Source: Candidatus Omnitrophota bacterium
GTDB taxonomy: Bacteria > Omnitrophota > Gorgyraeia > Duberdicusellales > 4484-171
Length of the DNA: 64,000 nt
Direction of reading: 5' to 3'
Assembly (NCBI GenBank): GCA_021735655.1
Contig: JAIPGM010000003.1
Span: forward strand, 128,001 to 192,000
The notes below the pieces were generated by a model. That model did not search any database, was not told the DNA's origin, and was given only the letters and a program-made list of their open reading frames with translations. A program made the position numbers and the translations under genes. Numbering within the stretch: the first letter of the stretch is position 1; each line of letters opens with the position of its first letter. Positions 36,058 to 55,383 of this stretch are shown here, in pieces.

Positions 36058-38511
36058 ATGAATTACAATAAGAAGATTGATAAAAAATGGCAAAATAAAT
36101 GGATAAAGCAGGGAATTTTTTCTGTAGATAATAAAGACTCAGCAAAACCTAAATATTACTGCCTGGTAATGTTTCCTTATCCATCGAGTGAACTCCATGT
36201 TGGTCATGCCCGAAACTATGTAATTGGCGACGCTGTTGGTCGCTATAAAAGAATGCAGGGGCTTGGTGTTCTTTCTCCGATGGGTTGGGATGCTTTTGGG
36301 CTGCCGGCTGAGAATCAGGCAATTAAACATAAGATTCATCCCAAGACCTGGACTTTTAAAAATATTAAGCGGATAAAGGAGCAATTGGCAAGTTGGGGGG
36401 TAGGCTATGATTGGCCACGAGAAATCGCAACTTGTGATCCGGAATATTATAAGTGGACCCAGTGGCTTTTTTTGAGGTTATATAAAAAAGGTTTAGCCTA
36501 TCGCAAAGAAGCCCCGGTTAACTGGTGCGAATCTTGTAAAACCGTTTTAGCTAATGAACAGGTAACTAACGGAAAGTGTGAGCGTTGTTCAAATGAGGTT
36601 AACCAGAAAAATTTAGAGCAATGGTTTTTTAAAATTACTGACTATGCTGACCGTCTTTTAGATGATTTAAAACTTTTAGAACAGTGGCCGGAGCGGGTAA
36701 GAACGATGCAGGATAACTGGATTGGTAAGTCTTTCGGTGCTGAGATTAACTTTCCGGTTGAAAATTCAGAACTTAAGTTTAACTGTTTTACTACTCGAGC
36801 CGACACTATCTTTGGGGCAACTTTTTTGGGTTTAAGTTGGGGCCATCCTTATGTGGTTGAGTTAATAAAAGATCTTGCCAATAAAGACGAGATTGAAGCT
36901 TTTATTGAAAAGGTAAAAAAGCAACCTCAGTCAGCTCGTCTAATAGATAATTTTGAAAAGGAAGGAGTTTTTACCGGAAAGTTCGCAATTAATCCGATGA
37001 CCGGTGAAAAGATACCGATTTGGATTGCTAATTATATTCTTTCCGGATATGGAACCGGAGCAATCATGTGCGTTCCGGCTCATGATTCAAGAGACTTGGA
37101 ATTTGCTAAGAAGTATAGCCTACCGATTGTTGAAGTCATTGAAGCCGAAGATAAACAAAAGCGCCTTAGCATAAGCCAAGAAGCTTACGAAGGGGAAGGG
37201 TCTTTAATTAATTCGGGAAAGTTTGATCGCCTAGGCTCGGAAGAAGCTAAAGAGCAAATCGTTGATTTTATGGAAAATAACAATATTGGGAAAAGGTCGG
37301 TTAATTATAAGCTTAGGGATTGGCTGGTGTCGCGTCAGCGTTATTGGGGGGCACCGATTCCGATTATTTATTGTGAGGCTTGCGGTGAGGTTGCAGTGGA
37401 GGATAAAGATTTACCGGTTCTTTTACCGGAAGTAAAAGAGTTCTTACCTACTGGGCAATCTCCTTTAACTTATATTGATAAGTTTATTAAGGTTAAATGT
37501 CCTAAATGTGGTAAGCCAGCTCGTAGGGAAACCGATACCATGGATACCTTTGTGGATTCTAGTTGGTACTATTTACGTTACATATCGCCTAAAGAGAAAA
37601 AAACAGCTTTTGTAAGTAATGATGTAAATAAGTGGCTACCGGTAGATCAATATATCGGAGGGGTAGAGCATGCAATTTTACATTTGATGTATTCGCGTTT
37701 TATTAATAAGTTTCTTCAAGATGAGGGGCTGATAGATTTTTCTGAGCCATTTAAGCGTTTGTTTACTCAAGGCATGATTGTGAAAGATGGCAATAAGATG
37801 TCTAAGTCCAAGGGTAATGTGGTTGCTCCTGATTATATTATTGATAAGTACGGAGCCGATACCATGCGGCTTTACATTCTTTTTATCGGCCCGCCGGAGA
37901 AAGATGCCGAATGGCAGGATGAGGGATTGCTCGGCGCTTGGCGGTTCATTCAAAGGTCATTAAAGTTGGTTGATATGTTTAAGGAGTGTTCAAAAGAAGA
38001 TAACCATGAGCCAAATAATCAAGAAAAGGCTTTACTCAGAAAAGTACATTCAACGATTAAAGAAGTTACCAAGGACTTAGAGGGAAATTTTCAATTTAAT
38101 ACGGCTATTTCAAAAATTATGGAGTTAGTGAACCAGGCCTATAAGGGTATTAGCGAGGCAGCCTTAAGTAAGGATATTTTAAGGCAAACTGTTGATACGG
38201 TGTTTTTGCTTTTATCTCCTTTTACTCCGCACATCAGTGAAGAGGTTAATGAAATTCTTGGCAATAAAGAGTCTGTTTTGAAGCGTTCTTGGCCGGTAGT
38301 CAAAGAAGAGTATTTAAAGCAAGCTGAGGTTGAGATCGCAGTTTCAATAAATGGTAAGGTGAAGGATAGATTAAAGATAGATGTTAATTGGTCTAAGGAA
38401 GAAGTTGAAGTTAAAGCCTTAGCCTTAGAGAAGATAAAAAAATCACTACAAGAAAAACCGCCCAAGAAAGTCGTCTACATCGATAAGAGAATTGTTAATA
38501 TTGTGGTTTAA
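36058..38511 (+). CDS. leuS: leucine--tRNA ligase
   Basis: HVGHARNY (HIGH), KMSKSKGN, and editing and anticodon-binding domains. 817 aa. Confidence 0.95.
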   Translation: MNYNKKIDKKWQNKWIKQGIFSVDNKDSAKPKYYCLVMFPYPSSELHVGHARNYVIGDAVGRYKRMQGLGVLSPMGWDAFGLPAENQAIKHKIHPKTWTFKNIKRIKEQLASWGVGYDWPREIATCDPEYYKWTQWLFLRLYKKGLAYRKEAPVNWCESCKTVLANEQVTNGKCERCSNEVNQKNLEQWFFKITDYADRLLDDLKLLEQWPERVRTMQDNWIGKSFGAEINFPVENSELKFNCFTTRADTIFGATFLGLSWGHPYVVELIKDLANKDEIEAFIEKVKKQPQSARLIDNFEKEGVFTGKFAINPMTGEKIPIWIANYILSGYGTGAIMCVPAHDSRDLEFAKKYSLPIVEVIEAEDKQKRLSISQEAYEGEGSLINSGKFDRLGSEEAKEQIVDFMENNNIGKRSVNYKLRDWLVSRQRYWGAPIPIIYCEACGEVAVEDKDLPVLLPEVKEFLPTGQSPLTYIDKFIKVKCPKCGKPARRETDTMDTFVDSSWYYLRYISPKEKKTAFVSNDVNKWLPVDQYIGGVEHAILHLMYSRFINKFLQDEGLIDFSEPFKRLFTQGMIVKDGNKMSKSKGNVVAPDYIIDKYGADTMRLYILFIGPPEKDAEWQDEGLLGAWRFIQRSLKLVDMFKECSKEDNHEPNNQEKALLRKVHSTIKEVTKDLEGNFQFNTAISKIMELVNQAYKGISEAALSKDILRQTVDTVFLLLSPFTPHISEEVNEILGNKESVLKRSWPVVKEEYLKQAEVEIAVSINGKVKDRLKIDVNWSKEEVEVKALALEKIKKSLQEKPPKKVVYIDKRIVNIVV

Positions 38512-38587
38512 CTTTTCTTTGATGACAAAATCACCATATTATACGAACTTCGTATTTGCTGCTATTATGGACATTTTACGAAACAAT

Positions 38588-38609
38588 ATTATAAGGAAAA
38601 ACCTTATAA
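38588..38609 (+). promoter_or_regulatory. inverted repeat TTATAAGG-n5-CCTTATAA overlapping a TATAAT -10 box upstream of the pilin gene
   Basis: Perfect 8-bp arms at 38588-38595 and 38601-38608. TATAAT at 38604-38609. A second palindrome, ATACGAA-c-TTCGTAT, lies at about 38551-38565. Confidence 0.3.
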
Positions 38610-38716
38610 TTGGTTATATTATTATGATAAAATGGCAACAATAGAATAAATAATTTAAGCAATTAGGTAGTTCGTCTGTTAATTGTTAGATATAAAATAA
38701 AGAAATGAGGAGAAAA

Positions 38717-39310
38717 ATGAAAAAAGTATTTACCTTGATCGAACTAATTGTAGTCATCGCTATCATCGCAATTTTAGCTGCTATCATTGCTCCCAATGCC
38801 TTTAAGGCCATTGAAAAAGCGAAGGTATCTGAAGCAATTGGAGATTTTAAAGCATATAAAACCGCGGCCTATAGTTTATATGCTGATACTGGTAAATGGG
38901 TTATGGAGGGTGCGGGTATTGAGTCTACTCCTGCTGGTGTATGTTGTTTTTTATTCTTGGAATCCGATAATAATGATTTATCTGTAGACCTTACTGGCTG
39001 GGTTGGTTGGGATGGACCATACATTGAGAAAATTAAATCAGAGCACCCTTGGGGAGGTTGGTATGCTTTTCAAAGTTGGGACGCTGGTAGAGGCCCAGAG
39101 GTAGATATGTGGGTTGATTTCGAAGATGATTGTTATCAAATTCCTAAAGATTGGGGAAACGGTGGCTGTCCTGTGCCATTAAAGGCTCAACTGAAAATTG
39201 ACAGCATGGTTGATGACGGGGATCTTACGAATGGAAGTATCTTAGATGGCCCATCTACAAATCAGGTAGAAGGCGATCTAAGTTGGATTTTGGTTTGGGA
39301 TGCTTTATAG
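38717..39310 (+). CDS. type IV pilin / pseudopilin (prepilin-type N-terminal methylation domain), non-canonical Val at -1
   Basis: GAGGAG RBS then MKKV|FTLIELIVVIAIIAILAAII. The FTLIE class III signal is present but the residue before Phe is Val (gta), not Gly. Paralog of 5053..5616. An upstream in-frame ATG at 38705 is unlikely because it lies within the RBS. Confidence 0.7.
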   Translation: MKKVFTLIELIVVIAIIAILAAIIAPNAFKAIEKAKVSEAIGDFKAYKTAAYSLYADTGKWVMEGAGIESTPAGVCCFLFLESDNNDLSVDLTGWVGWDGPYIEKIKSEHPWGGWYAFQSWDAGRGPEVDMWVDFEDDCYQIPKDWGNGGCPVPLKAQLKIDSMVDDGDLTNGSILDGPSTNQVEGDLSWILVWDAL

Positions 39311-39447
39311 TTTCAACCAAATGGAGACAGAGTTGATAGTTTTCTGATAAAATTATCTAACAAGTTGATCCACCTGGGCGTCTCAGTAGGTGGATATTTT
39401 TGCGTTATGAATATAAAAATTAACAAAAAGCAAGAAAGGAGGTAGTT

Positions 39448-39840
39448 ATGGATCAATCAAACGTATCATCAGGACAAGTTGGGGGTCAGAAAGAATCGCA
39501 GCACAATATCAGCATCCCAGTGTATCTTATTTTAACTCTTCTGTCTTGTGGGTTCTTCAATATTTATTGGAATTATCGACAGATGGAGGCTTGTAATGAT
39601 TTGTTAGGCAAGAAAGAGTTTGATTTTTGGCTTTGGTTTCTTCTTACGATTGTTACTTGCGGGATTTATCATATTTTTTATCAATACAAAATGGGATCAG
39701 CTATCGTTGAGATTCAACACAATAAAAATAAGGTCGTATTTGATAACTTGCCGATTATCAGTGTGCTGGTAACTATTTTTGGTATGACCGTAATAGTTGA
39801 TTGCATACATCAAAGTGAGATCAATAAGATAGTTAGCTAA
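39448..39840 (+). CDS. DUF4234-like small membrane protein
   Basis: Two copies of a TM segment carrying the (S/T)CG(F/I)(F/Y)..Y(W/F).Y motif (LSCGFFNIYWNY and VTCGIYHIFYQY). Confidence 0.45.
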   Translation: MDQSNVSSGQVGGQKESQHNISIPVYLILTLLSCGFFNIYWNYRQMEACNDLLGKKEFDFWLWFLLTIVTCGIYHIFYQYKMGSAIVEIQHNKNKVVFDNLPIISVLVTIFGMTVIVDCIHQSEINKIVS

Positions 39841-39848
39841 TTAATAAG

Positions 39849-40235
39849 ATGCAGAGCAAGACCCAGGCGTCTAGATATGTTCTCCGGGCGCTCATTGGTT
39901 CTATTTTTTTGATCGTTGTTCTTTCTGGTGTTTGTTTTTTCTTTTTTGGAATAGACCTCAAAGAACATCTTTCGTATTTGCCTTTGTGCCCTTTTCGGGC
40001 GATTACCAAAATTCCTTGTCCCGGTTGCGGCATGACTCATGCTTTTTTGGACATCGGACAATTTAAAATTAAAGAGGCGATCACCTACAATCCTTTTTCA
40101 GTACCTTTATTTTGTTTAATGGCAATTTACTTATTCTTTGGGCGTATTCCTTTATGGCTGAAACATAAGCGTTTAGTTTATTTAGCAGTAGTTAGCGTTT
40201 TAGTGGTTTGGGTATTAGGTTTGGTAGCAAGCTAA
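39849..40235 (+). CDS. DUF2752-domain membrane protein
   Basis: CPFRAITKIPCPGCGMTHAF (CP…CPGCG.T) signature flanked by TM helices. Confidence 0.6.
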   Translation: MQSKTQASRYVLRALIGSIFLIVVLSGVCFFFFGIDLKEHLSYLPLCPFRAITKIPCPGCGMTHAFLDIGQFKIKEAITYNPFSVPLFCLMAIYLFFGRIPLWLKHKRLVYLAVVSVLVVWVLGLVAS

Positions 40236-40274
40236 AGGTTTAGTCAATCCAATTTAATTTATTTAGCAATAACT

Positions 40275-40625
40275 ATGTTTTGCCTTACTCCTCAAGAAAG
40301 AAAGGTTATTTTTTTAATCGCTGGTTTGATTTTGTTGGGTGGTATTTTAAGATTTTTAAATACTGACAAAATAAATAAAATATTTTTAGAGAATGCCAGT
40401 AAAACTTCTGCTGAGGAAGCTAGTGGTCGGCAAATACTGATCAATATTAATAAGGCTGACAGAGGACAACTTGAGCTTTTGCCGGGTATTGGTACGGTAA
40501 CCGCAGAAAGAATTATTAATTACCGTTCTGATTACGGTATTTTTAAAAGTTTCGAAGATTTAGAAAAAGTTAAAGGAATCGGAAGCGAAAAGGCTAAAAA
40601 TTTGGCCGAGTTAATTGTTTTTTAA
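40275..40625 (+). CDS. comEA: competence protein ComEA (helix-hairpin-helix DNA receptor)
   Basis: N-terminal TM anchor. C-terminal tandem HhH (ININKA…LELLPGIG…AERII.YR…G.F.S.EDL.KVKGIG.). Confidence 0.8.
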   Translation: MFCLTPQERKVIFLIAGLILLGGILRFLNTDKINKIFLENASKTSAEEASGRQILININKADRGQLELLPGIGTVTAERIINYRSDYGIFKSFEDLEKVKGIGSEKAKNLAELIVF

Positions 40626-40638
40626 GAGTTAAGTCATT

Positions 40639-42075
40639 GTGGTAAATATAAATTATGGTTCTTTTTTTAATTTTTTTCTTTTTATTTTTTTTGCCTTAGG
40701 TATCATAGTTAGCGCATTTTTTCCATCATTCTTGACCTCCCTTTGTTGTTTTTTTGTTGTAAGTTTTTTTAGCTATTTTTTTTATCGGAGAAATCGACGG
40801 TTTCTTTCTGATATCTTAATTTTGGTTATCTTTTTTGTTCTTGGAGGTATTTGGTATCTGGCTAATTCGCATCATCAACCGGAATCCCTTTTAAATAAAG
40901 ATAAGCGATTTGTTCTTAAGGTAATATCTTTACCTAAAAATACAAAATTGCGCAGTAGTTTCGCTGCCGAGATAGATCAAGCAGACGGTCATCCCTTTAG
41001 ACAAACTTTAAGAGTTTATGATTATACGAAGTCTTTGGAATACTTAAATAGTTATGAGGTTTTGGGTAAGTTAACCAGAAGGAGCTATCATGATCGCTGG
41101 TTTTATTATCTTTGGATAAAGTCTAAAGCTAGGATAAATGAGCTTTCTTTGAATCCCTGGGACAAGTTTGTTAAAGGGACTAGCCTGTATATTCTTGATA
41201 TTTTTAGAAAGAATTCTACGGATCAGGCTTATCGGTTTCTGGCAGCGGTATTTTTAGGAAGAAGGGAGTTGCTGGGTGGCGAGCGTGAATTTTTCTCTCG
41301 GGCTGGAGCATCACATCTTTTGGCGATAAGTGGATTGCATGTTGGTCTTACCGCTTTAATTTTGTTTTCTTTCTTGGGATTCTTCGGCCTTTCTTTTAGG
41401 CTCCGTTTAGGAATTTCTTTAGTTTTTCTTTATCTTTATACTTTTTTGACCGGGGTCAGTCCGTCAACTTTACGGGCGGTTATTATGTACTCGGTATTTG
41501 CTTTTAGTTTTTTCTTAAAACGAAGACCACACTCTTTCAATTCTTTAGGTTTGGCCGGACTAATTTGTTTGTTAATAGATCCGGCAATGCTTTTTACAAT
41601 TGGCTTTCAACTATCTTTTATGGCAGTTTTTGCCATCCTTGTTGGTTATCGAATTTTTCCGGTTAAGTTAGTTGGCAGTCGAGCTCTGGTTTACTCTGGG
41701 CAGATTTTCTTTTGCTCTTTGTTTGTAAATGTATTTGTCACACCGTTAACCGCTTATTATTTCGGCAATATTAATACTTTGGGGATAGTCTATAATATTG
41801 TTTTGATTCCTTTTTTTACTTTTATTCTTACGATAAACTTCTTTTTAATTATATTGGCTCCAGTAAGTTTTATTGCTCAAAATTTAGGGGCTTTACTTTC
41901 ATTTCTTATTTTGATTTTTGTTTATTTGGTCCGGTTTTTAGGTTCTTTTAGCTTTTCTTATTTTAGCTGGCAATTTTCTCTAACCGGCGTGTTTGGCTAC
42001 TATTTTGTTCTGGCCGGGATTCTTGTGTTTTTCAAGCTCAAGAGTAGTCTCAAGCTCCAAAGTCCAGATAGTTAA
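40639..42075 (+). CDS. comEC: ComEC/Rec2 DNA-uptake channel, short form lacking C-terminal metallo-beta-lactamase domain
   Basis: DUF4131-like N-terminal region followed by the polytopic Competence domain (…FLAAVFLG.R…LSRAGASHLLAISGLHVG…). Ends at 478 aa with no HxHxDH domain. Confidence 0.75.
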   Translation: MVNINYGSFFNFFLFIFFALGIIVSAFFPSFLTSLCCFFVVSFFSYFFYRRNRRFLSDILILVIFFVLGGIWYLANSHHQPESLLNKDKRFVLKVISLPKNTKLRSSFAAEIDQADGHPFRQTLRVYDYTKSLEYLNSYEVLGKLTRRSYHDRWFYYLWIKSKARINELSLNPWDKFVKGTSLYILDIFRKNSTDQAYRFLAAVFLGRRELLGGEREFFSRAGASHLLAISGLHVGLTALILFSFLGFFGLSFRLRLGISLVFLYLYTFLTGVSPSTLRAVIMYSVFAFSFFLKRRPHSFNSLGLAGLICLLIDPAMLFTIGFQLSFMAVFAILVGYRIFPVKLVGSRALVYSGQIFFCSLFVNVFVTPLTAYYFGNINTLGIVYNIVLIPFFTFILTINFFLIILAPVSFIAQNLGALLSFLILIFVYLVRFLGSFSFSYFSWQFSLTGVFGYYFVLAGILVFFKLKSSLKLQSPDS

Positions 42076-42128
42076 GGGTTGATTAATGGTTTGACAAGAA
42101 TAGCCTCCTTTGATATAGTTTTTTATCA

Positions 42129-44114
42129 ATGAAGAAGGCCATTTTTCTTTTAATTCTACTTACCTTTTCTTGGTCGGTTTACCCTTTTTGGGTTTGGTCT
42201 CCTAAGACTCAGAAGTGGAAGAACCCTAAATATTCAGCCCTTTCCACTCCTTACCTTCAGTATAAAGCAGCTTTAAAGATTTTTGAAGAAGGACGCTACA
42301 AGGAAGCCCATAAGGAATTTAAGAAATTCTTAGCTCACTATCCTGATGCTAAAGAAGCGGCTGAAAGCCAATATTACCTGGGTAGATGCCTTGAGAAGTT
42401 TGATAAGTCTTATGAGGCCTTTTTAGTTTATCAAAAACTAATCGATTCTTATCCTAATAGCCAGCGGATTAACGAAGTAATTGAGAGGGAGTACAATATT
42501 GGTGAGTCCTTTTTGAATCGTGAACATAAGAAATGGCTGGGTTTGTCATTGTATGATTTTGTAGAGCATCCTTCGATATTAATTTTTAATAGTTTGGTCA
42601 ATAAGGCTCCTTATTCAGAATATGCGCCGCGAGCTCAATATAAGCTGGGGATCATTCTTTTTGAATTAGGCCGGTTTGACGAAGCTCGAGATGCTTTTCA
42701 GAAGGTAGTTGATAATTATTCTGATACTGAATGGGCTCCTCCGGCAAAGTATCAATTAGCTATAGCGACTTCGAAGGCCTTTCCGGGGGCCGACTATGAT
42801 TCTTCTTACTTACAGGAGGCTACTGCCAGGCTTGATGAGTTTATTAAAGAACATCCTGAAGCTAAGATTTCCGATCAGGCTGAGGATCAACTGAAGATTT
42901 TAAGGAACCGAGAAGCTAAAAAGAACTTTGAGATAGCTCAATTTTATGAAAATCAGGATCAATATGAAAGTGCGGTGATTTATTATCGTAAAGTCCTTGA
43001 TGAGTATATTGATAGTGATTATTATGATAGTTCTTTAGAGAAGGTTCAGGAGTTGAATCAGTTAATCGAAGGAAACTTGACTAAGAAAGATTTAATCTTA
43101 AGCCATAAAAAAGAAGCAGCTCAAACTAAGAAGGCAGAGAAGATTAGGGCAAAGGATAGAAAAAAGGACAACAAACAGGAGCTTCGACAGAATAAAATAG
43201 ATACAAAAAAGAGAATTCGACAGGAAGCAAAGATATCCAAAGAGCTTCGTCGTAAGGAAAAGCTTGCGCTTAAGTCTGAGGCCAGAGCTAAAAAAGAAAT
43301 AGCTAGGGCTAAGAAGTTAAGAGAGAAGCAGGATCGGGCACAGGAGAAGAAGAACCGTGCCAAAGAGAGACGCGAGGAAAAACTTGCCCGAAAGAATGAG
43401 GCTAAGGCGAAAAAACAGGCCCTAAGAGCTAAAGAGTTAAAAAAGAGGGAAGCTCCGACACAGGGAAAAAAAGAGTTGGTTGAAGAAAAAAGTAAGGAAA
43501 AGTTTGTTGAATTAGAATCGGCTAAAGCCAAGAAGGTACCTTTAAAGAGTCCAAAGCTAAAAAAGAAACAAGATCAGCGAGAACGAAAGCAGGCTCTTCT
43601 TGCCGAGAAGCGACAAAGAAAAATTGAGCGTAAAGCTCAAAAAAGAGCTAAAAAAGAATTTACTCGAATTAAAAAGTTAAAGAAAAAAGAAGAGCTTATC
43701 CAGAAAAAGAAAGATTCAATTGCAGCTAAGCAAAAAGCAAAGCTTGATCGGAGCAACGAAGCTAAAGCGAGGAAGGAAGCAGCCAGAGAAGAGAAACTAA
43801 GACAGAAAGCAGAACGCTTAAAAGATAAACAAGCTCTTATTGAAAAAAAGCGAGCCGAAAAATTAGCTCGTCGAATTGAAGCTAAAGTTAGAAAAGAGGC
43901 GATTAGGGAAAAGAAGTTAAAGGCCAAGCAGGAATGTATTCAAAAAGCAAAGCAGATTAAAGCCCAAAAGCGTCAAGAGAAGCTAATTAAAAAACAAAAA
44001 GCTAAAGCTAAAAAAATGGCACTTAAGGAAAAAAAGCGTAAAGAAAAATTAGCTAAAGAAAGTCGGACTGAGCCTAAAGTAGAAGCTCAAGATAAGGAGA
44101 CAGAAAATGATTAA
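42129..44114 (+). CDS. BamD (YfiO)-like TPR outer-membrane assembly factor fused to a ~350-aa Lys/Glu/Arg/Ala-rich low-complexity tail
   Basis: Residues 1-300 match BamD architecture (signal peptide, …YP.S.YA..AQY.LG…YSDTEWAP.A.YQLA…YY.K…). Residues ~310-661 are near-pure K/E/R/A with repeated AKAKK / EKLARK units. Confidence 0.65.
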   Translation: MKKAIFLLILLTFSWSVYPFWVWSPKTQKWKNPKYSALSTPYLQYKAALKIFEEGRYKEAHKEFKKFLAHYPDAKEAAESQYYLGRCLEKFDKSYEAFLVYQKLIDSYPNSQRINEVIEREYNIGESFLNREHKKWLGLSLYDFVEHPSILIFNSLVNKAPYSEYAPRAQYKLGIILFELGRFDEARDAFQKVVDNYSDTEWAPPAKYQLAIATSKAFPGADYDSSYLQEATARLDEFIKEHPEAKISDQAEDQLKILRNREAKKNFEIAQFYENQDQYESAVIYYRKVLDEYIDSDYYDSSLEKVQELNQLIEGNLTKKDLILSHKKEAAQTKKAEKIRAKDRKKDNKQELRQNKIDTKKRIRQEAKISKELRRKEKLALKSEARAKKEIARAKKLREKQDRAQEKKNRAKERREEKLARKNEAKAKKQALRAKELKKREAPTQGKKELVEEKSKEKFVELESAKAKKVPLKSPKLKKKQDQRERKQALLAEKRQRKIERKAQKRAKKEFTRIKKLKKKEELIQKKKDSIAAKQKAKLDRSNEAKARKEAAREEKLRQKAERLKDKQALIEKKRAEKLARRIEAKVRKEAIREKKLKAKQECIQKAKQIKAQKRQEKLIKKQKAKAKKMALKEKKRKEKLAKESRTEPKVEAQDKETEND

Positions 44115-44622
44115 ATTATTAATTCTAGCTGTATTTTTTTTAAGTTCTGGATGCGGTTATACTACTCGAGGTTCTATTTATGCCGGGAAAAAAATAATGG
44201 TTCGGCCGGTAATTAATACCATTGATGTAACTTCTCTGAGTGAAAGAACATCGGGGTATGTTAATTTTCCTATTTTGATTGAAAATAAATTAACTAATGA
44301 GATAGTAAGTAAATTTAACAATGATGGCCAACTTAAGGTAGTCAGTCAGGATCAACAGGCGCTTACACTTACTTGTTCAGTGGATAGTTACACCAAACAG
44401 ACTTTGCGTTATGAAGAGGCTAATGATGGCGAGGTGAAGGAGCAACGCTTGAGGCTGCATACACACATCAAGCTTACCTCAGCCACAGGTGAAGTATTAA
44501 TTGAAGAAGATGTTGTTGGTGAGACCGAGTATCTTGTTTCCGGAAGTGAGACCACAGCCCAAATCGCTTTAGTAAGCGATACAGCGCGAAGAATTTCCGA
44601 AGCGGTTTTGGAGCAATGGTGA
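44107..44622 (+). CDS. lptE: LptE-like LPS-assembly lipoprotein
   Basis: Lipobox LSSGCGYTTRG resembles the LptE AGCGWHLR start. 171 aa. 8-nt overlap with the upstream BamD-like gene. Followed by a holA-like ORF, as in the E. coli leuS-lptE-holA block. Confidence 0.5.
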   Translation: MIKLLILAVFFLSSGCGYTTRGSIYAGKKIMVRPVINTIDVTSLSERTSGYVNFPILIENKLTNEIVSKFNNDGQLKVVSQDQQALTLTCSVDSYTKQTLRYEEANDGEVKEQRLRLHTHIKLTSATGEVLIEEDVVGETEYLVSGSETTAQIALVSDTARRISEAVLEQW

Positions 44623-44685
44623 TTCGTTAGTCTTTTTATGTCAAAGCACAAGAATTGCCCGCCTTTGTTTTGAGTCAATAAAATT

Positions 44686-45378
44686 ATGAAAGTTAGAGAA
44701 AGACTTTTTTTAATTTCCGGTGGTAACTTCGACCAGCGACAACGTACACTCAGTGGTATAAAGAAAAGGTTATTTAAGGAGAAGGATTCCCCTTTAGATA
44801 CTTTTACTTTTTATGGGAAAGAGGTAGAGTTGAAGGGTTTAAATGACAAGCTGCTCACTGCTTCCTTTGGTCAGCGGAGGATGATTATTTTTAGAAATTT
44901 TCATCAGTTGGCATCTCCGGTGAGAAAGTTTATTTTTAAAAATATAAAGAGGATTCTTCTTGCGAATTATGTTGTTTTTGACAGCGATAAGGAGTATTAT
45001 CAGCTACAAAGAGATAAACGGTTTATGTCAGATAGTTTATTTACCTTGGCTATAAAGCAAGCTGCGGTATATAAGGTTAGTCCGGTAAAAAAAGATTTTT
45101 CGTTTCAGGATTTAATGAGTAGCTTGCGAAAGAATGATTTAAATAGTTCGCTTTATATTATTGAGAGTCTTTTTCGTTCCGGTAGCAACGCACACATGCT
45201 GGGCCCGCAAATCATTGGTGTATTGGTTCATAAATGTTCCGGTTTTAGTAATCCGCGGAGAGAGATTTGTCTAGAATATTTATGGGAGGCTGACCGAGCG
45301 CTTAAAGAAAAAGGAGTTGATAGTCGTCTGGCTATTGAAACTCTGTTAGTGAAGATATTTACCCCTTCAGCTGGTTGA
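44686..45378 (+). CDS. possible DNA polymerase III delta subunit (HolA)-like protein, short
   Basis: Weak N-terminal resemblance to HolA (LFLISG.N…, …ASFGQRRMIIF). Position after lptE matches E. coli synteny. Only 230 aa. Confidence 0.35.
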   Translation: MKVRERLFLISGGNFDQRQRTLSGIKKRLFKEKDSPLDTFTFYGKEVELKGLNDKLLTASFGQRRMIIFRNFHQLASPVRKFIFKNIKRILLANYVVFDSDKEYYQLQRDKRFMSDSLFTLAIKQAAVYKVSPVKKDFSFQDLMSSLRKNDLNSSLYIIESLFRSGSNAHMLGPQIIGVLVHKCSGFSNPRREICLEYLWEADRALKEKGVDSRLAIETLLVKIFTPSAG

Positions 45379-45669
45379 GGATTTTTTCTTAGCTGAAGTT
45401 GTTTTTTTAGTCGAAGGATTGACGAGCTTTGATAGACGTGATTTCTTATTGGCTGCCTTGTTTTTGTGAATAACATTACTTGAAACAGCCTTATCCAAAA
45501 GCTTGCATATTTTTTCTAGTGCTTTGGCGCGTGCTTTTGAGTCTTTTTCTTCAAGGCTTTTTTTAAGCGTTTTTAAGGCAACCCTAATGTTACGCTTTAC
45601 AGCAAGGTTCCGATGGTAGCGTTTTTTGCTTTGTCGTAAATCCTTTTTTGCAGCTCTTCTTTGTGGCAT
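45367..45669 (-). CDS. rpsT: 30S ribosomal protein S20
   Basis: MPQRRAAKKDLRQSKKRYHRN…HKNKAA… bS20 pattern. Lys-rich C-terminal extension. Confidence 0.85.
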   Translation of the reverse strand: MPQRRAAKKDLRQSKKRYHRNLAVKRNIRVALKTLKKSLEEKDSKARAKALEKICKLLDKAVSSNVIHKNKAANKKSRLSKLVNPSTKKTTSAKKKSSTS

Positions 45670-53931: not shown

Positions 53932-55383
53932 ATGACTTTGACCTTACTAGCCTTATGCGGTGGTATACTCACCGGTTTGAGTTTTAATTCAGAACCAACT
54001 TCTTTTTTAATCTGGTTTTCTTTAGTTCCTTTTATTCAAGTAATAAGTAAGAGCTCGCTTAAGGCGGGAATTTTTAGAGCTTTTTTATTTGGCTTTGCCT
54101 ATTATCTGGTAGTTATTTTTTGGATAGCTAAAGTTACCTTTTTGGGATTGATTGCCTTGGTTGTTTATCTTTCTTTGTATTGTGTATTGTTCTTTTTAGT
54201 CGGTCGTTACTTTTTAAAGAAACCTTTGAGACTTATCAGCCTACCTTGTTTTTGGGTTTTGATTGAGTTTTTGAAGGAGAATATTTGGACTGGTTTTGGC
54301 TGGGCTAACCTAGGGTATTCTCAGTATAATAATCTTCATTTAATCCAGGTAGCTGATATTGGCGGAGTTAAGCTGATTTCTTTTTTAGTCGTAATGGCTA
54401 ATGTTTTTATTTGGGAAGTAATCACAACCAAAGGGCCAAAACAGAAAAAGGCGATCGTCAAGAAAGCTCTTTTTGTGTGTTTGATCTTTCTGGCTTGTTT
54501 TTCTTATGGAGCTTATCGGCTTAAGAACTTAACCGAGGCAGGTTCTTTAGAAGTTACAGTAGCTCAGCCAAATATTCCCCAAAGTTTAAAATGGGATCCT
54601 AGCGCAGCTTCTTCAATTGTAGATAAGTTGGGGTCATTAGCTAAAGAAACAAAGAAAGAATCTTTAGTCATTTTCCCTGAGGCAGCTTGGCCGTATACTG
54701 TAGCTCAAGAAGATGTAGAAGATTTGAGAAGTTTTGCTGAAAGTATAGATCGGCACATTCTCATTGGTTCAGTTATCAAAGAAGGAGATAAGTTTTATAA
54801 TTCAGCCTTATTGTTTCAGTGGAGGGCATCAGCAATCCGTTTGTGTGGTTCTTATCGTAAAATAAAACTAGTTCCTTTTGGTGAGTATGTTCCTCTTAGG
54901 AAATTGTTTAGTTTTATTGAGGTGCTGAATACAATTGGAGACATAAGCCCCGGAGAAACACTTTCAGGATTTTCGCAATCCGGACATAACTATTCGGTTT
55001 TGATTTGTTTTGAGGATGTTTTAGCGAGTTATGTTACTCAGATGGTTGGTGATAGTGATTTTTTAGTTAATATTACTAATGATGCTTGGTTTGGTGGAAA
55101 CCCCCAGAGCTTTCAGCATTTGGGCGTTATGACTTTAAGAGCTGTTGAGAACAGAGTTTCTATTGTCCGCAGTGCTAATACTGGAATTAGCGGTTGGGTA
55201 TCTTTTAAAGGAGAAATTGAGAAACTAACCCATCAAGGTAAGGAAGTTTTTTTTCCGGCTATTAAAACTTTTCGAATTTCTTTGAATCGGGTACGAGGGG
55301 TTTATACTTTTTGGGGTGAGCTTTTCCCGGTTTTTTGTGGTATGTTTCTTTTAGCGGTTTTTATCAAAAGCAGCAAAGATTAG
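53932..55383 (+). CDS. lnt: apolipoprotein N-acyltransferase
   Basis: N-terminal polytopic domain plus CN-hydrolase domain with the E…K…C triad context (…VLICFEDV…). Confidence 0.85.
   Translation: MTLTLLALCGGILTGLSFNSEPTSFLIWFSLVPFIQVISKSSLKAGIFRAFLFGFAYYLVVIFWIAKVTFLGLIALVVYLSLYCVLFFLVGRYFLKKPLRLISLPCFWVLIEFLKENIWTGFGWANLGYSQYNNLHLIQVADIGGVKLISFLVVMANVFIWEVITTKGPKQKKAIVKKALFVCLIFLACFSYGAYRLKNLTEAGSLEVTVAQPNIPQSLKWDPSAASSIVDKLGSLAKETKKESLVIFPEAAWPYTVAQEDVEDLRSFAESIDRHILIGSVIKEGDKFYNSALLFQWRASAIRLCGSYRKIKLVPFGEYVPLRKLFSFIEVLNTIGDISPGETLSGFSQSGHNYSVLICFEDVLASYVTQMVGDSDFLVNITNDAWFGGNPQSFQHLGVMTLRAVENRVSIVRSANTGISGWVSFKGEIEKLTHQGKEVFFPAIKTFRISLNRVRGVYTFWGELFPVFCGMFLLAVFIKSSKD

Follow-up and report, generated by a model that had tools for sequence, protein, structure and literature searches.

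We analyzed a 64-kb stretch of DNA from a Candidatus Omnitrophota bacterium (the window, meaning the whole stretch that was analyzed) and focused on one gene within it, which encodes a 661-residue protein of the BamD family. BamD is one of the two essential and most widely conserved subunits of the β-barrel assembly machinery (BAM), and it is usually seen as a compact lipoprotein of ~25-30 kDa. The proteins described here depart from that picture in two respects. The BamD of the whole phylum appears to lack a lipid anchor and carries a Trp-rich N-terminal motif instead, and one clade, to which the window protein belongs, adds a conserved polycationic tail, predicted to form a helical rod 14-72 nm long that bears a phase-locked basic stripe. 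The features of the gene are listed below, with helix lengths taken at ~0.15 nm per residue and model confidence given as the predicted local distance difference test (pLDDT).

42091..42119, + strand: promoter-like element (TTGACA, 17 nucleotides [nt], TG-extended TATAGT; 11 of 12 consensus matches)
42129..44114, + strand: bamD-family open reading frame (ORF), complete; 661 amino acids (aa) including the tail; TAA stop at 44112-44114
42129..42185, + strand: signal-peptide-like N-terminus without a lipobox; aa 1-19, MKKAIFLLILLTFSWSVYP; helix at 2-15 in the model
42186..42224, + strand: aromatic/basic motif FWVWSPKTQKWKN; aa 20-32; Trp-rich beta-hairpin in the model
42243..43073, + strand: BamD/YfiO tetratricopeptide repeat (TPR) domain; aa ~39-315; 13 helices; assigned by profile and fold
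43074..44111, + strand: polybasic repeat tail; aa 316-661, 346 aa; ~8 x 40 aa; net charge ~+79
43083..43442, + strand: predicted tail helix 1; aa 319-438, ~18-22 nm; extends to aa 466 in a tail-only model
43443..43565, + strand: predicted hinge, a degenerated repeat copy; aa 439-479, with P443, G446, P471 and P475; pLDDT <50 (437-481)
43566..44060, + strand: predicted tail helix 2; aa 480-644, ~25 nm; pLDDT ~80-93
44061..44111, + strand: acidic C-terminal end (...ESRTEPKVEAQDKETEND), predicted disordered; pLDDT <50 at residues 640-661
44094..44099, + strand: lptE Shine-Dalgarno AAGGAG, within bamD codons K656-E657; 7-nt spacer to the ATG at 44107
44107..44622, + strand: lptE-like lipoprotein gene; 171 aa; PF04390 32.7 bits against a cutoff of 23; lipobox-like ...LSSGC

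A BamD-family protein without a predicted lipid anchor

That the protein is the BamD (YfiO/ComL-family) subunit of the BAM complex of an Omnitrophota bacterium is very likely. It scored 92.8 bits against the BamD profile TIGR03302 (curated cutoff 81.4) and 57.9 bits against the YfiO profile PF13525 (cutoff 25), and its best sequence matches in the PDB were the Rhodothermus BamD 3QKY and the BamA-BamD fusion 5EFR. A full-length AlphaFold2 (AF2) model, built on an 81-sequence family alignment, had a mean pLDDT of 82.9 and reached mostly 90-98 in the TPR region. The top Foldseek matches were 5EFR, 3QKY, Flavobacterium johnsoniae 9N2D_F, Neisseria 5WAQ, and Escherichia coli 2YHC (E 4e-8 to 1e-5), but designed and other generic TPR proteins scored nearly as high, which makes fold by itself an unspecific criterion. 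No YfiO match was found for two further TPR proteins of the window, leaving 42129..44114 as the only YfiO-type protein among those tested. We rejected CpoB/YbgF as an identity, given scores below cutoff for TIGR02795 (82.3 vs. 90.1) and NF008068 (39 vs. 383) and neighbors that are comEC and lptE rather than tol-pal. An earlier note on this DNA, written from the letters alone, had read the first ~300 aa as a BamD-type TPR architecture and proposed a profile search to confirm it. Both profiles exceed their curated cutoffs, and the PDB and Foldseek matches agree with them.

The earlier note had also pointed to an N-terminus lacking the lipobox Cys, an observation that extends to the whole family. 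A lipobox-like motif ahead of the conserved FWIW motif was found in none of the 115 family members with a complete N-terminus, the window protein included. The lipobox Cys that marks an outer-membrane lipoprotein is absent, and we therefore class the protein as a putative non-lipidated variant of the BamD family rather than as a canonical BamD lipoprotein. The hydrophobic segment ends in [A/V/G/T/S]-Y-[P/S/A], where position -3 is always small, -2 is Tyr in 109 of the 115, and -1 is mainly P, S, or A. Right after it, in the same 115 members, comes the near-invariant FWIWSPKTQKWKNP motif.

Within this motif, which takes the form FW[IV]WSPKTQKWKNP, residues F20, W21, W23, S24, and K26 are invariant across 81 sequences. 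The AF2 model places strands at 22-24 and 29-31 (pLDDT ~67-74) in a Trp-zipper-like arrangement. This predicted hairpin may stand in for the lipid anchor or dock to BamA, and we know of no established sorting signal that resembles it. The missing lipobox is likely specific to BamD, because lipoproteins are otherwise made in this organism: the window encodes Lnt, and LptE retains its lipobox, the ...GCGYTT(R/K)G region of which is conserved across the phylum. Judging from these N-termini, the absence of a lipid anchor is a family trait of Omnitrophota BamD, tail or no tail.

A repeat-built tail with a basic stripe

The tail is composed of K (29%), E (14%), A (13%), R (11%), L (8%), Q (7%), and I (5%), among others. 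It had been described as a "K/E/R/A-only" stretch of low complexity, yet those four residues make up 66% of it; L, Q, and I add 20%, and aliphatic plus aromatic residues amount to ~15%. Its charge is unbalanced, with 137 K+R against 58 D+E (net ~+79). Nor is the tail featureless. It repeats a 40-aa unit, with the pattern xEAKAKKEAxRxKKLKxK...EKRxEKLARK, in ~8 diverged copies, and its charge is periodic. At the DNA level the copies lie exactly 120 nt apart and are 60-80% identical, and self-identity of the protein rises to 0.32-0.35 at shifts of 40, 80, 120, and 160 residues, compared to a background of 0.15. We found no other ORF with a comparable charged stretch in the 64-kb window and therefore rejected the idea that this composition is a proteome-wide trait.

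Fourier analysis of the tail gave a 3.63-residue period (= 40/11), with a power of 31 for K/R, 17 for D/E, and 35 for signed charge, where the 95th percentile of shuffled sequences was ~8. Because 40 residues correspond to 11 helical turns (3.64 per turn), the K/R residues would fall in a single straight stripe ~110 degrees wide along the whole rod. On a 3.636-residue helical wheel, three adjacent 36-degree sectors contain 70 K/R among 95 positions and only 2 acidic residues. Leu and Ile are gathered in the two sectors that flank the stripe (13 of 32 and 15 of 31 positions), forming two ridges ~144 degrees apart, and E, Q, and A occupy the opposite face. The phase of the stripe stays within 53-102 degrees throughout seven successive 40-aa blocks.

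Based on the models, the tail is probably a helical rod made of two long alpha-helices joined by a Pro/Gly hinge. In the full-length AF2 model, helix 1 has a pLDDT of ~93 that falls to the mid-60s near its end. A single-sequence AF2 model of the tail alone places helices at tail residues 4-151 and 160-330 with a break at 152-159 (mean pLDDT 87.4, ~95 inside the helices). Its predicted template modeling score (pTM) of 0.29, for a monomer without an alignment, gives no support for a fixed hairpin. The hinge interrupts what had been called an uninterrupted segment: residues 439-479 contain P443, G446, P471, and P475 at a pLDDT below 50. The corresponding position in the closest relative (P0121; locus L005, 8001-9737) is a regular, proline-free repeat in a gapless alignment, so the hinge is likely a recent, lineage-specific degeneration of one repeat copy.

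The earlier suggestion of an extreme single alpha-helix (SAH) or coiled coil stands in part. Helical character is supported by the models (AF2 pLDDT ~80-96), but Fourier analysis and pair counts argue against both of the named classes. A canonical heptad coiled coil was rejected because there is no 3.5-residue hydrophobic peak; the LIVMF maxima (6.65, 5.73, and 10.0) are harmonics of the 40-aa repeat and scarcely rise above shuffles. An ER/K SAH was rejected because opposite-charge i,i+3/4 pairs number 78, compared to 81.6 ± 6.9 in shuffles, at a net charge of +79. Finally, the tail was not found to be TolA-like or a shared or mobile module, as it had no match to TolA, any other Pfam or NCBIfam family, or any PDB entry even at E <= 10.

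Distribution, conservation, and origin of the tail

All homologues came from Candidatus Omnitrophota. Searched on its own, the tail gave three matches in a word-indexed set of 5.8 billion proteins, all of them BamD tails, and a single match, a BamD fragment, in an exhaustive phmmer search of 1.84 billion representatives. Among metagenomic homologues, tails of 48-238 aa occurred almost only where TPR identity was at least ~65%, and most of the others end at ~312-318 aa.

Comparing BamD lengths in related taxa, as the earlier note had proposed, we found tails in 19 of ~66 GTDB species representatives. In a neighbor-joining tree of the TPR domain, the window protein and 16 other tailed species group in a single clade that contains no tail-less species. 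Tails are present in all 17 species sampled from this clade and range from 92 to 482 aa (~14-72 nm if fully helical). The longest tail is that of L011 (482 aa in a 797-aa protein, net +123, ending KKKFWFW), followed by L020 (349), the window (346), L017 (330), and L018 (321). The window protein is therefore extreme in tail length but not the record. L022-L024, which make up a second and small clade, bear tails of weak charge (+6 to +21).

The end of the tail also varies. The basic tails of one subclade have ...KKKFWFW or RFWLW as their last residues, an echo of the N-terminal FWIW (L010, L011, L014, L019, and L021; P0005, P0009, P0016, and P0038), whereas the window protein and its closest relatives have an acidic ...E[ST]END end instead of an aromatic one. 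Such an aromatic end might pair with the hairpin at the N-terminus or provide the protein with a second anchor at a membrane interface.

The charge period recurs across relatives. A period of 3.62-3.66 residues was the top significant peak in the tails of 46 of 59 relatives, as it was in every scored species representative. The stripe was kept despite differing sequences and repeat lengths (29, 40, 47, 58, and others). The best self-similarity shifts in relatives (11, 18, 29, 40, 47, 51, 58, and 69) resemble whole helical turns as well, an observation that is partly circular and that we did not use as evidence.

For a comparison of rates, we used P0121/L005 (578 aa), the closest relative, which aligns without gaps across 531 codons. 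The TPR domain is 89% identical between the two proteins (dN 0.058), and the tail is only 48% identical (dN 0.42). Synonymous sites are saturated (pS ~0.72-0.74), which makes dN/dS semi-quantitative only. Still, residue class is the same at 61% of tail positions, compared to 25 ± 3% in shuffles. Because residue class and stripe are conserved while the sequence drifts, the tail is likely a selected trait and not an artifact. Together, these results show clade-wide retention of the tail with purifying selection at the level of its pattern.

The tail appears to be an in-place expansion of a short K/E-rich C-terminal helix into a repeat array. An origin by gene fusion was rejected: in tail-less relatives bamD overlaps lptE directly, and the lack of any extra gene between them points to expansion in place.

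Promoter, coupling to lptE, and gene neighborhood

The promoter-like element upstream of bamD, TTGACA-17-TGATATAGT, stops 9 nt short of the bamD ATG with no Shine-Dalgarno sequence between them. In most relatives checked it is kept 8-10 nt before the ATG, although the flanking DNA has diverged (L001, L003, L004, L005, L008, L009, L011-L016, and L019). This suggests that bamD-lptE has a dedicated promoter in Omnitrophota and that its mRNA may be leaderless or nearly so.

At the other end of the gene, the lptE start at 44107 overlaps the bamD TAA stop by 8 nt, because of which the two genes are likely translationally coupled. The downstream LptE-like gene and its 8-nt overlap had been described before and are confirmed by the PF04390 score and by the positions of start and stop. 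In addition, 44107-44622 carries the lipobox Cys expected of LptE and lies in synteny with leuS and holA. Between 44091 and 44114, the final seven codons of bamD (D K E T E N D) and its stop hold both the Shine-Dalgarno sequence and the ATG of lptE. The acidic "...DKETEND" end may accordingly be constrained by the overlapping lptE initiation region as well as by protein function. Adjacency of bamD and lptE was seen in most of the ~66 species-representative loci, with an overlap of 4 nt (ATGA) the commonest, and the two genes abut or overlap in every locus compared (L001, L003, L004, and L005).

Neighboring genes in the window are as follows.

38705-39310: pseudopilin with an N_methyl motif, inserted between leuS and comEA
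39448-39840: DUF4234, inserted between leuS and comEA
39849-40235: DUF2752, inserted between leuS and comEA
40275-40625, + strand: comEA, conserved upstream neighbor; HHH_3 62.3 bits
40639-42075, + strand: comEC, conserved upstream neighbor; Competence 169 bits
44686..45378, + strand: holA-like gene; 230 aa; TIGR01128 38 bits, under the cutoff of 80; conserved syntenic position
53932-55383: Lnt

Next after the short holA-like gene come rpsT, murJ, and uvrC. The rpsT ORF (45367-45669) lies on the minus strand, convergent with the holA-like gene, and shares 12 nt with the 3' end of the latter. The order leuS...comEA-comEC-bamD-lptE-holA-rpsT(-)-murJ-uvrC was found again in the tailed L001, L004, and L005 and in the tail-less L003 (complete genome CP070797.1), and comEC-bamD-lptE-holA in these four loci places the window BamD as an orthologue at a fixed genomic position. 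The conserved cluster, which spans 36058-45669 in the window (leuS to rpsT), recurs in the same four loci, with variable inserts between leuS and comEA in the window and L005. The order leuS-lptE-holA is a synteny of Proteobacteria and comEA-comEC-holA-rpsT one of Firmicutes; the Omnitrophota cluster combines the two. SecA is also encoded in the window, and BamA is not encoded within its 64 kb.

Two antisense ORFs on the minus strand, 43121-43531 (136 aa) and 43637-43927 (96 aa), have Phe/Ser/Leu-rich, low-complexity translations. Because the coding strand of the tail is 71% purine (AT skew +0.49 in 43001-44000), both are likely by-products and not genes. Many third-party annotation (TPA) records of metagenome-assembled genomes (MAGs) with an Omnitrophota-type locus are titled "uncultured Planctomycetia bacterium" (L007, L009, L011, L012, L014, L017, L021, L026, and others), probably a taxonomic label at odds with their gene content.

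What the tail might do

We tentatively infer that the tail serves in multivalent electrostatic attachment to an anionic surface of the cell envelope, and we give this a probability of roughly 35-40%. The period equals the natural helical repeat rather than 3.5 residues, which is why one face of the rod would be straight, a geometry suited to a flat or linear partner and not to a supercoiled coil. The conserved face is cationic, so its partner should be polyanionic (phospholipid head-groups, peptidoglycan, or DNA). After Sec export, the rod would act as a long multivalent polycation lying along an extended anionic envelope surface, the likeliest targets being the phospholipid head-groups of the inner leaflet of the outer membrane or the peptidoglycan. 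Binding would hold or position the non-lipidated BamD and thereby the BAM and LptD/E assembly site. Until binding neutralizes its like charges, the helix may be only partly formed, and repeat number would tune avidity rather than fix a distance. The 5-fold range of tail lengths among sister species favors avidity over a fixed-distance ruler.

Several points weigh against electrostatic attachment, every functional step of which is our own deduction. Tails in some relatives (P0051, P0055, P0060, and L022-L024) are acidic or near-neutral (net -17 to +21) with the stripe absent or weak, which indicates that positive charge is not universally required. These minority tails suggest that the extension arose there independently or is used differently. 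As to structure, AlphaFold readily gives long helices for K/E/A-rich sequence, and a stripe in a tail of net +79 should destabilize an isolated helix. The face flanked by Leu and Ile is cationic and not hydrophobic, unlike that of known in-plane membrane helices. Moreover, Sec export of such a polycation against the membrane potential is not trivial, and Pro at -1 in 62 of the 115 N-termini puts cleavage of the signal-like segment in question. Lastly, tail-less members also have no lipobox, so the tail cannot be a general replacement for the lipid anchor.

A more specific proposal, that the non-lipidated BamD with its repeat-tunable polycationic rod couples the BAM and LptD/E site to peptidoglycan, the inner membrane, or incoming DNA, we regard as unlikely. 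If true, an essential assembly factor would carry in its tail a previously unrecognized envelope tether or adaptor, whose length or avidity evolution could dial through repeat number.

Some of the same properties would fit a trans-envelope spacer, with the rod spanning the periplasm from BAM to the peptidoglycan or the inner membrane (e.g., the Sec translocon) and setting or sensing envelope width as TolA domain II or Lpp do. The predicted rigid helices of ~18-22 nm and 25 nm with their hinge are on the scale of the periplasm, variation in repeat number resembles that of the tandem-repeat tract of E. coli tolA (PMC3477136), and the KKFWFW ends of some relatives could be a second membrane-interface anchor. 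However, a range of 92-482 aa (~14-72 nm) among close species is hard to square with distance-setting, and it weakens the "periplasm-spanning ruler" of the earlier note. The tail is not homologous to TolA, and neither a TolQR-type anchor at the N-terminus nor a TolA domain III is present; a phase-coherent cationic stripe is not needed for spacing; and a 50-nm rod is large relative to the ~200-nm cells reported for the phylum (PMC10066038). We find a spacer quite improbable.

To much the same degree, we doubt that the tail is a largely non-functional, tolerated expansion that arose by slippage or duplication of a K/E-rich terminal helix and drifts in length, constrained only by solubility and an intact lptE start. 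It does evolve ~7x faster than the TPR domain (dN 0.42 vs. 0.058), there is wide variation in its length and repeat period and even in the sign of its charge, and it has no homologue outside the clade. Against drift, all 17 of the sampled clade species are tailed, and the frame has stayed open for more than 1 kb, a stretch in which stops number 19 and 43 in the remaining two + frames. Residue class matches at 61% of positions vs. 25% by chance, dN is well under dS, and the 3.63-residue stripe is preserved across different repeat lengths. The repeat copies are also old (60-80% DNA identity, mixed codons) and not the product of recent slippage.

The basic character of the tail could alternatively make it a periplasmic DNA-binding arm, a histone-H1-like polycation through which BamD/ComL takes part in DNA uptake with ComEA/ComEC. 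ComL, the BamD of Neisseria, is a DNA binder in vitro and also interacts with the secretin PilQ (PMC3140584). Here bamD lies directly 3' of comEA-comEC throughout the phylum, and net charges of +79 to +123 with AKAKK-type motifs are typical of nucleic-acid binders. Yet the comEA-comEC-...-holA-rpsT neighborhood is equally conserved in tail-less species. The comE-holA-rpsT order is a widespread housekeeping synteny, in which adjacency need not imply function. The tail also does not have the Pro-rich PAKK/SPKK character of known bacterial H1-like tails, and acidic and weakly charged tails exist in relatives. A DNA-binding arm thus seems to us distinctly improbable.

Self-association, either of the K/R stripe on the E/Q/A face or in a bundle, so as to cluster BAM complexes, is very unlikely, as is a Skp-like basic holdase arm. 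Charges do lie on opposite faces, and the two Leu/Ile ridges ~144 degrees apart could form helix-helix seams. However, there is no heptad or hendecad hydrophobic core (LIVMF spectrum barely over shuffles), repulsion would remain with 137 K+R against 58 D+E, and the tail-only model shows no sign of a hairpin (pTM 0.29). For a holdase, ~15% aliphatic plus aromatic residues is poor for client binding.

An assembly artifact was a worry of the earlier note, and the region is repetitive with a 71% purine coding strand. Even so, the chance of an assembly or annotation artifact, whether repeats collapsed or expanded in assembly or two genes joined by a frameshift, is negligible. The longest exact repeat in the tail DNA is 15 nt with no tail 15-mer elsewhere in the window, and codon usage is mixed within repeats. 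Independent JGI and NCBI datasets yielded the same P0121 assembly on 8 contigs, and P0121 aligns without gaps, its residue classes conserved. Moreover, 19 species-representative genomes have tails, and no gene lies between bamD and lptE in tail-less relatives.

Should electrostatic attachment or any other binding of the rod to membrane, peptidoglycan, or DNA prove true, it would represent a new way to position outer-membrane biogenesis machinery in ultra-small uncultured bacteria, as well as a natural length-variable module for the study of periplasmic electrostatic tethering. Even with a modest function, the tail is a clear case of selection acting on helical charge pattern over sequence, and it cautions annotators that such tails are not junk low complexity. 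The finding is of moderate interest to outer-membrane biologists and is testable by simple biochemistry.

Comparison with known systems

By profile and fold, the TPR domain is homologous to canonical BamD from E. coli (2YHC), Rhodothermus marinus (3QKY), and F. johnsoniae (9N2D_F), and its core role as the partner of BamA in outer-membrane protein assembly is presumably the same. The window protein differs in having no lipobox, a FWIWSPK motif, a 346-aa tail, coupling to lptE, and a TPR domain that at ~280 aa is longer than E. coli BamD. Our searches of the literature on BamD C-terminal extensions, lysine-rich tails, and the Omnitrophota envelope agree with our database searches of the tail that, as the earlier note had thought, such an extension is unusual for a BamD. 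The only precedent found was a C-terminal stretch of ~60 residues in alphaproteobacterial BamD, which has not been characterized (Anwari et al. 2012, PMC3359395), and BamD was absent from the text of the Omnitrophota genome surveys consulted. The alphaproteobacterial protein sets a precedent for a lineage-specific C-terminal extension, but the Omnitrophota tail is 92-482 residues long, repeat-built, and polycationic. Neisseria ComL, which belongs to the same family and combines DNA binding in vitro with a PilQ interaction (PMC3140584), is a lipoprotein without a long basic tail, unlike the window BamD; here it is bamD that adjoins comEA/comEC.

The nearest functional analogy to the tail is TolA domain II, which is not homologous to it. 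Both are long, Lys/Ala/Glu-rich helices (predicted for the tail, periplasmic in TolA) whose repeat number varies between strains or species, and in E. coli tolA the copy number of the variable tandem-repeat tract modulates stress tolerance (PMC3477136). However, TolA has an inner-membrane anchor and a globular domain III, whereas the architecture here is a TPR domain plus a tail that hangs from a subunit of an outer-membrane complex. The tail is also far more net positive than TolA domain II, has a phase-locked basic stripe, and shares no sequence or profile similarity with it.

As a very long, highly charged, and hydrophobic-poor predicted helix without heptads, the tail resembles ER/K SAHs. 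Those helices are near charge-balanced and stabilized by i to i+4 E-K pairs; the window tail, by contrast, shows no enrichment of opposite-charge pairs and has a net charge of +79. A geometric likeness is also found in 11/3-type amphipathic repeat helices (apolipoproteins, alpha-synuclein, and LEA proteins), which use whole-turn repeats at ~3.63-3.67 residues per turn. They share with the tail a repeat geometry that gives a straight face for binding to a flat surface. Yet in 11/3-type helices the conserved face is hydrophobic and inserts in lipid, whereas in the Omnitrophota tail that face is cationic, with hydrophobic residues confined to its edges.

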